64,000 nucleotides of DNA from Leucoraja ocellata. Its lineage: Eukaryota. This document shows positions 42,531 through 42,697 of the stretch, piece after piece. Position 1 is the stretch's first letter, and each line of letters begins with the position of its first letter. The position numbers were made by a program, and so were the translations under genes. The stretch covers positions 682,001-746,000 of the forward strand of contig JAWMAR010000650.1 in the NCBI GenBank assembly GCA_036785375.1. The letters are read 5' to 3'. The notes beneath the pieces were generated by a model that saw nothing but the letters and a program-made list of their open reading frames with translations, was not told the DNA's origin and did no database searches.

Positions 42531-42697
42531 TGTAGGAAGGAATTGTGTAGATGCTGGTTTAAACCGAAGACAGACACAAAAAGCTGGAGAAACTCAGCAG
42601 GTCAGACGGCATCTCTGGAGAAAAGGAATAGGTGATGTTTCGGGTCGAGAAGGGTCTGAAGAAGAGTCTCGACCCGAAACGTCACCTATTCCATTTC
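42531..42697. mobile_element. Short Penelope-like repeat, copy E, with inverted partial duplication
   Basis: A minus-oriented body is joined to a plus-oriented ctgaagaagagtctcgacccgaaacgtcacc. 15-bp direct repeat tgcaggact(t/c)aattg (42516-42530 / 42698-42712). Confidence 0.85.
42651..42687 (+). ncRNA. Candidate minimal type I hammerhead ribozyme motif
   Basis: GGGU-CUGAAGA-A-[GAGU CUCG ACCC]-GAAA-CG-UC^-ACCU: CUGANGA and GAAA boxes, GUC triplet, short stem I and a palindromic loopless stem III. Activity untested. Confidence 0.55.

Follow-up and report, generated by a model that had tools for sequence, protein, structure and literature searches.

A minimal hammerhead motif within a head-to-head insertion of a likely Penelope-like terminal repeat in Leucoraja ocellata

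Introduction

Does a hammerhead match at a single locus mark a working ribozyme, or may it be a by-product of the way a mobile repeat was inserted? The question is raised by a motif in the window, i.e. the whole stretch of 64,000 nucleotides of Leucoraja ocellata DNA analyzed here, which an earlier sequence-only reading took for a ribozyme core in a Penelope-like repeat, possibly retrozyme-like and sense to a host gene. That interpretation is partly supported. Very probably the locus holds a 167-bp insertion in which two pieces of a very abundant repeat stand head-to-head; this repeat is likely a Penelope-like element (PLE) terminal repeat (pLTR), and its hammerhead is predicted to be inactive here through the 36-bp pairing of the two pieces.

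The host gene belongs to the EBF family. Its recognized exons lie on the + strand at about 3860-9675, the last of them starting near 9604, and include the following.

3859..4011, + strand, EBF-family (COE) coding exon, E 3e-28 to COE1, with a COE1_DBD domain

Because no later exon motif was found, we infer that the insertion lies in the large intron that follows. The motif is indeed sense to the EBF-family gene, as had been claimed, but this orientation carries no weight because family pieces occur on both strands in the intron. Nothing points to an effect on the EBF gene.

The motif and its class

The motif is real, and all of its letters stand at the positions originally proposed.

42652..42687, + strand, minimal type I hammerhead motif, predicted cut after C42683, fitting the consensus in PMC4209133 Fig. 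S3
5' part of the motif: GGGU (42652-55), CUGAAGA (42656-62) and an extra A (A42663)
Helix II: 42664-68 with 42671-75, mismatched at A42665
3' part of the motif: GAAA (42676-79), CG (42680-81), U42682, C42683 and ACCU (42684-87)

Realistically, helix II has 4 bp and a loop of 4 nt; its A-C mismatch at A42665 was seen as described, as was the GGGU/ACCC retained by the copy at 52846. A minimal-hammerhead descriptor gave a single match across the 64-kb window, the focal site, where 200 order-2 Markov replicates of the window gave a chance expectation of 0.11 matches per window without helix I and 0.005 with a helix I of at least 3 bp. The Rfam check that had been suggested returned no hammerhead match at E<=10 in the whole window or in 42630-42710, which is probably unsurprising because the variant is so short. 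Twelve weak miRNA-hairpin matches were returned by Rfam for 42630-42710; these are generic hairpin matches far under gathering scores, and a miRNA identity was rejected.

Minimal hammerheads occur in PLE repeats by the thousands per vertebrate genome (Cervera and De la Pena 2014, PMC4209133), where they are inactive as monomers and weak as dimers, and their consensus takes in examples with a 2-bp helix I. The focal copy resembles them in its CUGANGA and GAAA boxes and UH site, the extra nucleotide after A9 (A42663), the G10.1-C11.1 pair (G42664-C42675), the palindromic 15.2-16.2 positions (CG 42680-81), the absence of helix III and the shortness of helix I; like the family studied here, they are mostly single dispersed motifs with some opposite-strand pairs (PMC4209133). 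It differs from them in its short 4-bp helix II and in having no linked parent reading frame. Identification as a minimal type I hammerhead of the kind found in PLE terminal repeats, within an abundant retroposed repeat, is supported. The class has been known since 2014 and is extended here to a very high-copy family; the readable part of the supplement to PMC4209133 contains no cartilaginous fish, and no description of this repeat family in cartilaginous fish was found in the literature searched, which lay mostly outside subscription journals.

Anatomy of the insertion

The motif sits inside one insertion, 42531-42697, between 15-bp target duplications, and the insertion consists of two head-to-head inverted pieces of one repeat with a tail on one arm only.

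42516..42530, + strand, left target-site duplication, 15 bp, its final two bases overlapping the tail end
42529..42650, - strand, main arm, a pLTR-like piece of 122 nt, 5'-truncated within the helix II loop and lacking the CUGA box
About 42529-42565, - strand, optional tail, which ends the main arm
42648..42657, + strand, junction patch, 10 nt, an exact match to 52850-52859
42654..42697, + strand, inverted arm, a short tailless stretch of that repeat, 44 nt long, which faces the main arm head-to-head
42698..42712, + strand, right target-site duplication

Left and right duplications are identical at 14 of 15 positions, a level reached or exceeded by 2 of 3000 random site pairs with the same geometry. 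At 42699 the family carries C rather than G in 87-92% (among the 40 of 83 variant rows listed), and G is present here, so the right duplication is host DNA. The junction patch is the family's own helix II 5' arm; its overlap is 3 nt with the main arm and 4 nt with the inverted one, and it supplies the extra GG that lengthens helix I in the focal copy. The 4-bp helix I noted by the sequence-only reading is therefore present in the focal copy as a product of the patch, and does not extend to the family, the majority of which has 2 bp. Slipped short duplications of a purine-rich stretch, resembling the focal patch, were also seen at the 5' ends of the copies at 28272-28300 and 27565-27595.

Together the arms make a 36-nt inverted repeat (42615-50/42667-702) that differs at 3 of 36 places. 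A fold-back of the assembly was considered and rejected, since these arm differences and the duplication flanking both ends argue against it. Neither of two DNA runs yielded a contig free of differences across the focal junction, and depth on the right flank was zero in both, a hole that proves nothing. A single-copy contig from DNA run X13 spans the left flank, with 9 substitutions and a gap of 6 nt over 189 nt, and continues through the main arm as far as 42634, with no + arm seen; the insertion thus predates the split from that relative. Joins of antisense to sense arms were found at varied places in other contigs of both DNA runs.

Probable relationship to Penelope-like elements

Assignment of the repeat as, likely, the terminal repeat of a PLE rests on architecture because a parent PLE reading frame was not found; there was no RT or GIY-YIG profile match in the 56 of 76 stop-to-stop window frames scanned. 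A protein search with a repeat-derived 40-mer gave one match among 2 candidates, a LINE endonuclease fragment that is interrupted by, and ends in, a repeat copy; it was rejected as the parent. Described hallmarks of PLE insertions are terminal repeats inverted head-to-head, a tail of 30-40 bp on one side and duplication of the target (PMC3846280, PMC8557442, PMC8969392). The focal insertion has head-to-head inverted pLTR-like pieces with a target duplication, and the family has an optional tail at one end (3 pieces in each end class, with ends picked by hand). Inverted-pLTR insertions of endonuclease-bearing PLEs (Arkhipova 2013, PMC3846280; Craig 2021, PMC8557442) likewise show the head-to-head arrangement of inverted repeats, with the central part present once, the one-sided tail of 30-40 bp and the duplicated target. 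Unlike those, the focal insertion has no reading frame between the repeats, and its target duplication is 15 bp as against 8-10 bp in rotifer PLEs (PMC3846280, PMC8557442).

The tail is defined by two classes of 3' end, three pieces ending 120-125 nt and three 82-87 nt from the start of helix II, so that it appears to be an optional segment of 35-40 nt; these ends were chosen by hand, and a fourth piece, at 74 nt, carries an internal deletion. The longer distance may be compared with Poseidon PAc of the green anole, whose reverse transcription begins 111-118 nt after the start of helix II (Frangieh 2024, PMC11167929). The PAc hammerhead cleaves only with protein and is dispensable for insertion in vitro. 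Both systems have RNA reads without ends at the cut site and inserted copies that keep an uncut core, whereas PAc has a start codon at helix II and cleavage shown with protein, and the focal repeat has no AUG there and cleavage that is predicted only (PMC11167929).

Abundance and conservation of the family

To survey the family, 42330-42930 was compared at 80% likeness with sequencing runs from related organisms. Matching contigs numbered 92,870 in DNA run X1 (91% read) and 82,164 in DNA run X13 (read whole), and matching reads numbered 11,476 in poly(A) RNA run X22 (6% read) and 28,981 in single-cell run X23 (1% read). Ten family pieces lie at 9 places in the window on both strands, about one per 6.4 kb, and one of the ten keeps both conserved boxes. 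Window density and summed depth suggest some 10^5 copies, depth not being a copy number. Viral contigs, metagenome contigs and prokaryote genomes yielded 0 family copies in pattern scans. One of the pieces in the window is the following.

52841..52973, + strand, sister copy, a solo repeat with tail, its 5' end 5 nt before C3 and its UH site broken

It has a candidate 10-bp duplication, identical at 9 of 10 positions. A further family copy at 52704-52790 lies about 140 nt away in direct orientation; as both cores are broken and the copy at 52841-52973 has its own candidate duplication, the two are likely separate insertions.

Loose ends in all four runs read TCAGT before the core, and depth at 42653 was 1.0, 1.5, 6.8 and 1.8% of that at 42665; these observations indicate a family helix I of 2 bp, with which the family still fits the minimal class because published examples include such helices. 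Position 42665 is G in 82-93% of the family (again among the 40 of 83 variant rows listed, core positions in the other rows being unscored), so helix II is normally perfect in the family. The general base of the hammerhead, G12 (PMC6155905), lies in a CpG and was changed in 18.0, 15.8, 17.8 and 21.1% in the four runs, while a tail CpG outside the core showed the same change in 16.0, 15.7, 18.3 and 19.4%. Since the G12 change matches the CpG background, there is no sign of selection on genomic copies, and its rate did not shift in RNA runs relative to DNA runs. Among 8 window copies, pairing was 90.6% for helix II and 50% for helix I, with a covariation score that 54 of 500 shuffles reached; this comparison has low power, and the run data are unphased. 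The core conservation and stem covariation proposed as tests in the sequence-only reading were thus not found.

Reads from related organisms did not pile up with their ends at the cut site, a weak negative given fragmented libraries of which X22 was read to 6% and X23 to 1%, nor was any position in the runs surveyed rich in read starts or ends. Depth on the unique flanks was zero in the two RNA runs, which has no bearing on expression. Single-cell reads of X23 fell nominally about 3-8:1 on the strand opposite the hammerhead in both arms (42540-42707), while X22 was balanced; the skew may reflect oligo-dT priming on the T-rich upstream flank. The pyrimidine-rich sequence upstream, which ends in CAG at helix I, could be a 3' splice site, although its agreement among records is no more than 0.37-0.51, and splicing there would change helix I; in Drosophila virilis the Penelope intron terminates at helix I (PMC4209133).

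It is possible, though rather unlikely, that the family consists not of truncated full elements but of a stand-alone, non-autonomous retroposon of about 135 nt, self-transcribed, with the hammerhead at its head, and moved in trans by PLE proteins. Consistent with this are the start of two copies with candidate duplications 5-7 nt before C3, the poor agreement among records of the sequence upstream of the core (0.37-0.64), the density of pieces in the window, and the existence of non-autonomous PLE derivatives (PMC3846280; 10.64898/2026.07.22.740005). However, in all four runs the upstream loose ends have a C/T-rich run in common, as would be the case with a longer parent; 5' truncation usually leaves PLE copies with a single terminal repeat (10.64898/2026.07.22.740005), and the runs surveyed lack the pile-up of read starts that would be looked for from a stand-alone transcript. 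That the repeat is a SINE-like, hammerhead-headed Penelope parasite of perhaps several hundred thousand copies, in which a minority with intact cores cuts host pre-mRNAs given PLE protein or a second copy, strikes us as improbable.

We regard as very improbable the proposal that the family is a non-LTR retrozyme, whose tandem units self-cleave into monomers and circles. Its type I core has the palindromic ACGU, one chondrichthyan genome is reported to contain non-LTR retrozymes (Li 2026, 10.64898/2026.07.22.740005), and the family, like these, is a short non-coding repeat that bears a type I hammerhead and is linked to PLEs (PMC7229834; 10.64898/2026.07.22.740005). Retrozymes, however, are tandem units of 150-450 bp with mostly canonical hammerheads and circles (PMC7229834; 10.64898/2026.07.22.740005), whereas the pieces here are dispersed, solo or inverted, and canonical tandem hammerheads have been set apart from the minimal ones of PLEs (Cervera 2020, PMC7229834). 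The retrozyme-like reading offered originally fails on two counts, as the window has no tandem array with complete hammerheads and the helix III stem-loop of the canonical type I fold is absent, in keeping with the lack of Rfam hammerhead matches; copies moreover begin upstream of the core rather than at the cut site. Of 9 Xenopus dimers tested in one study of retrozymes, 1 cleaved (10.64898/2026.07.22.740005).

Folding of the focal copy

On the explanation preferred here, insertion of two head-to-head pLTR-like pieces, the arms themselves are predicted to mask the motif.

42615..42702, + strand, predicted 36-bp hairpin of the two arms, in which GAAA, GUC and the 3' strand of each of helices I and II are paired

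The predicted hairpin energy was -63.8 kcal/mol (z -7.8 for 42600-42720), and bases 42676-87 were predicted to pair with the upstream arm with a probability of 0.999 at three context lengths. Forcing helices I and II would cost 43.8-43.9 kcal/mol in context, and the isolated 40-mer is also predicted to favour another fold, by 8.0 kcal/mol. The hairpin is already the best predicted fold once the transcript reaches 42684 and so includes the cut site. No hammerhead dimer was obtained when 42651-42690 was cofolded as two strands, a case for which nearest-neighbour folding is weak. The focal copy is accordingly predicted to be incapable of adopting the hammerhead fold within the host transcript. 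Since a long hairpin is predicted to hold it, it is probably an inert intronic passenger. In the pre-mRNA the same hairpin might also serve as a target of double-strand RNA editing.

Hardly credible is domestication of the focal copy as an intronic ribozyme cutting EBF pre-mRNA, in the manner of the intronic hammerheads conserved among amniotes, for although it is sense to the gene, has the sole intact core among the 10 window pieces and a helix I longer than that of its family, and has a main arm in common with a relative about 5% diverged in the flank (X13), the folding in context expected of a domesticated hammerhead is predicted to be blocked by the hairpin penalty of 44 kcal/mol and the competing fold of the 40-nt piece, helix II has a mismatch absent from 82-93% of the family, helix III is absent, and the window holds no intact partner copy.

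Proposed mechanism

From features observed directly, i.e. the motif, the duplication, the inverted arms, the one-sided tail, the patch and the loss of G12 at a neutral rate, a sequence of events may be proposed. A PLE protein would have introduced nicks in the two target strands, 15 bp from each other. From the left nick, reverse transcription may have been primed at the tail end, and from the right nick internally, at a site where target and element agree in 5 of 6 letters. Head-to-head joining of the resulting two cDNAs would then have taken place via the 10-nt templated patch. A precedent is PAc, the protein of which nicks and extends both strands (PMC11167929). Copies whose 5' ends lie 5-7 nt upstream of the core are consistent with a template that was not cut. 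The ribozyme of the parent element would probably cleave weakly, as a dimer or with help from protein, as shown for other PLEs, and genomic copies such as the focal one are likely passive relics. The insertion would be a clean record of likely PLE priming from both nicked strands and of junction patching. More generally, the best stem of a hammerhead match at a single locus can derive from an insertion scar, and the inverted arm of the same insertion can mask the match.

Other repeats in the window

A Tc1/mariner-like DNA transposon remnant lies at 39232-40702, with inverted ends of about 230-270 bp that are 88-97% complementary, a DDE_3 match (E 6e-10) and a weak HTH_Tnp_Tc3_2 match on the - strand, and a 42-nt G run in its right end. 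A second dispersed repeat family, its members 72-88% alike, occurs at 24715-24956, 31133-31405, 32597-32685, 33801-34166, 38152-38216 and 40863-41229, and presumably resembles the 3' ends of LINEs.
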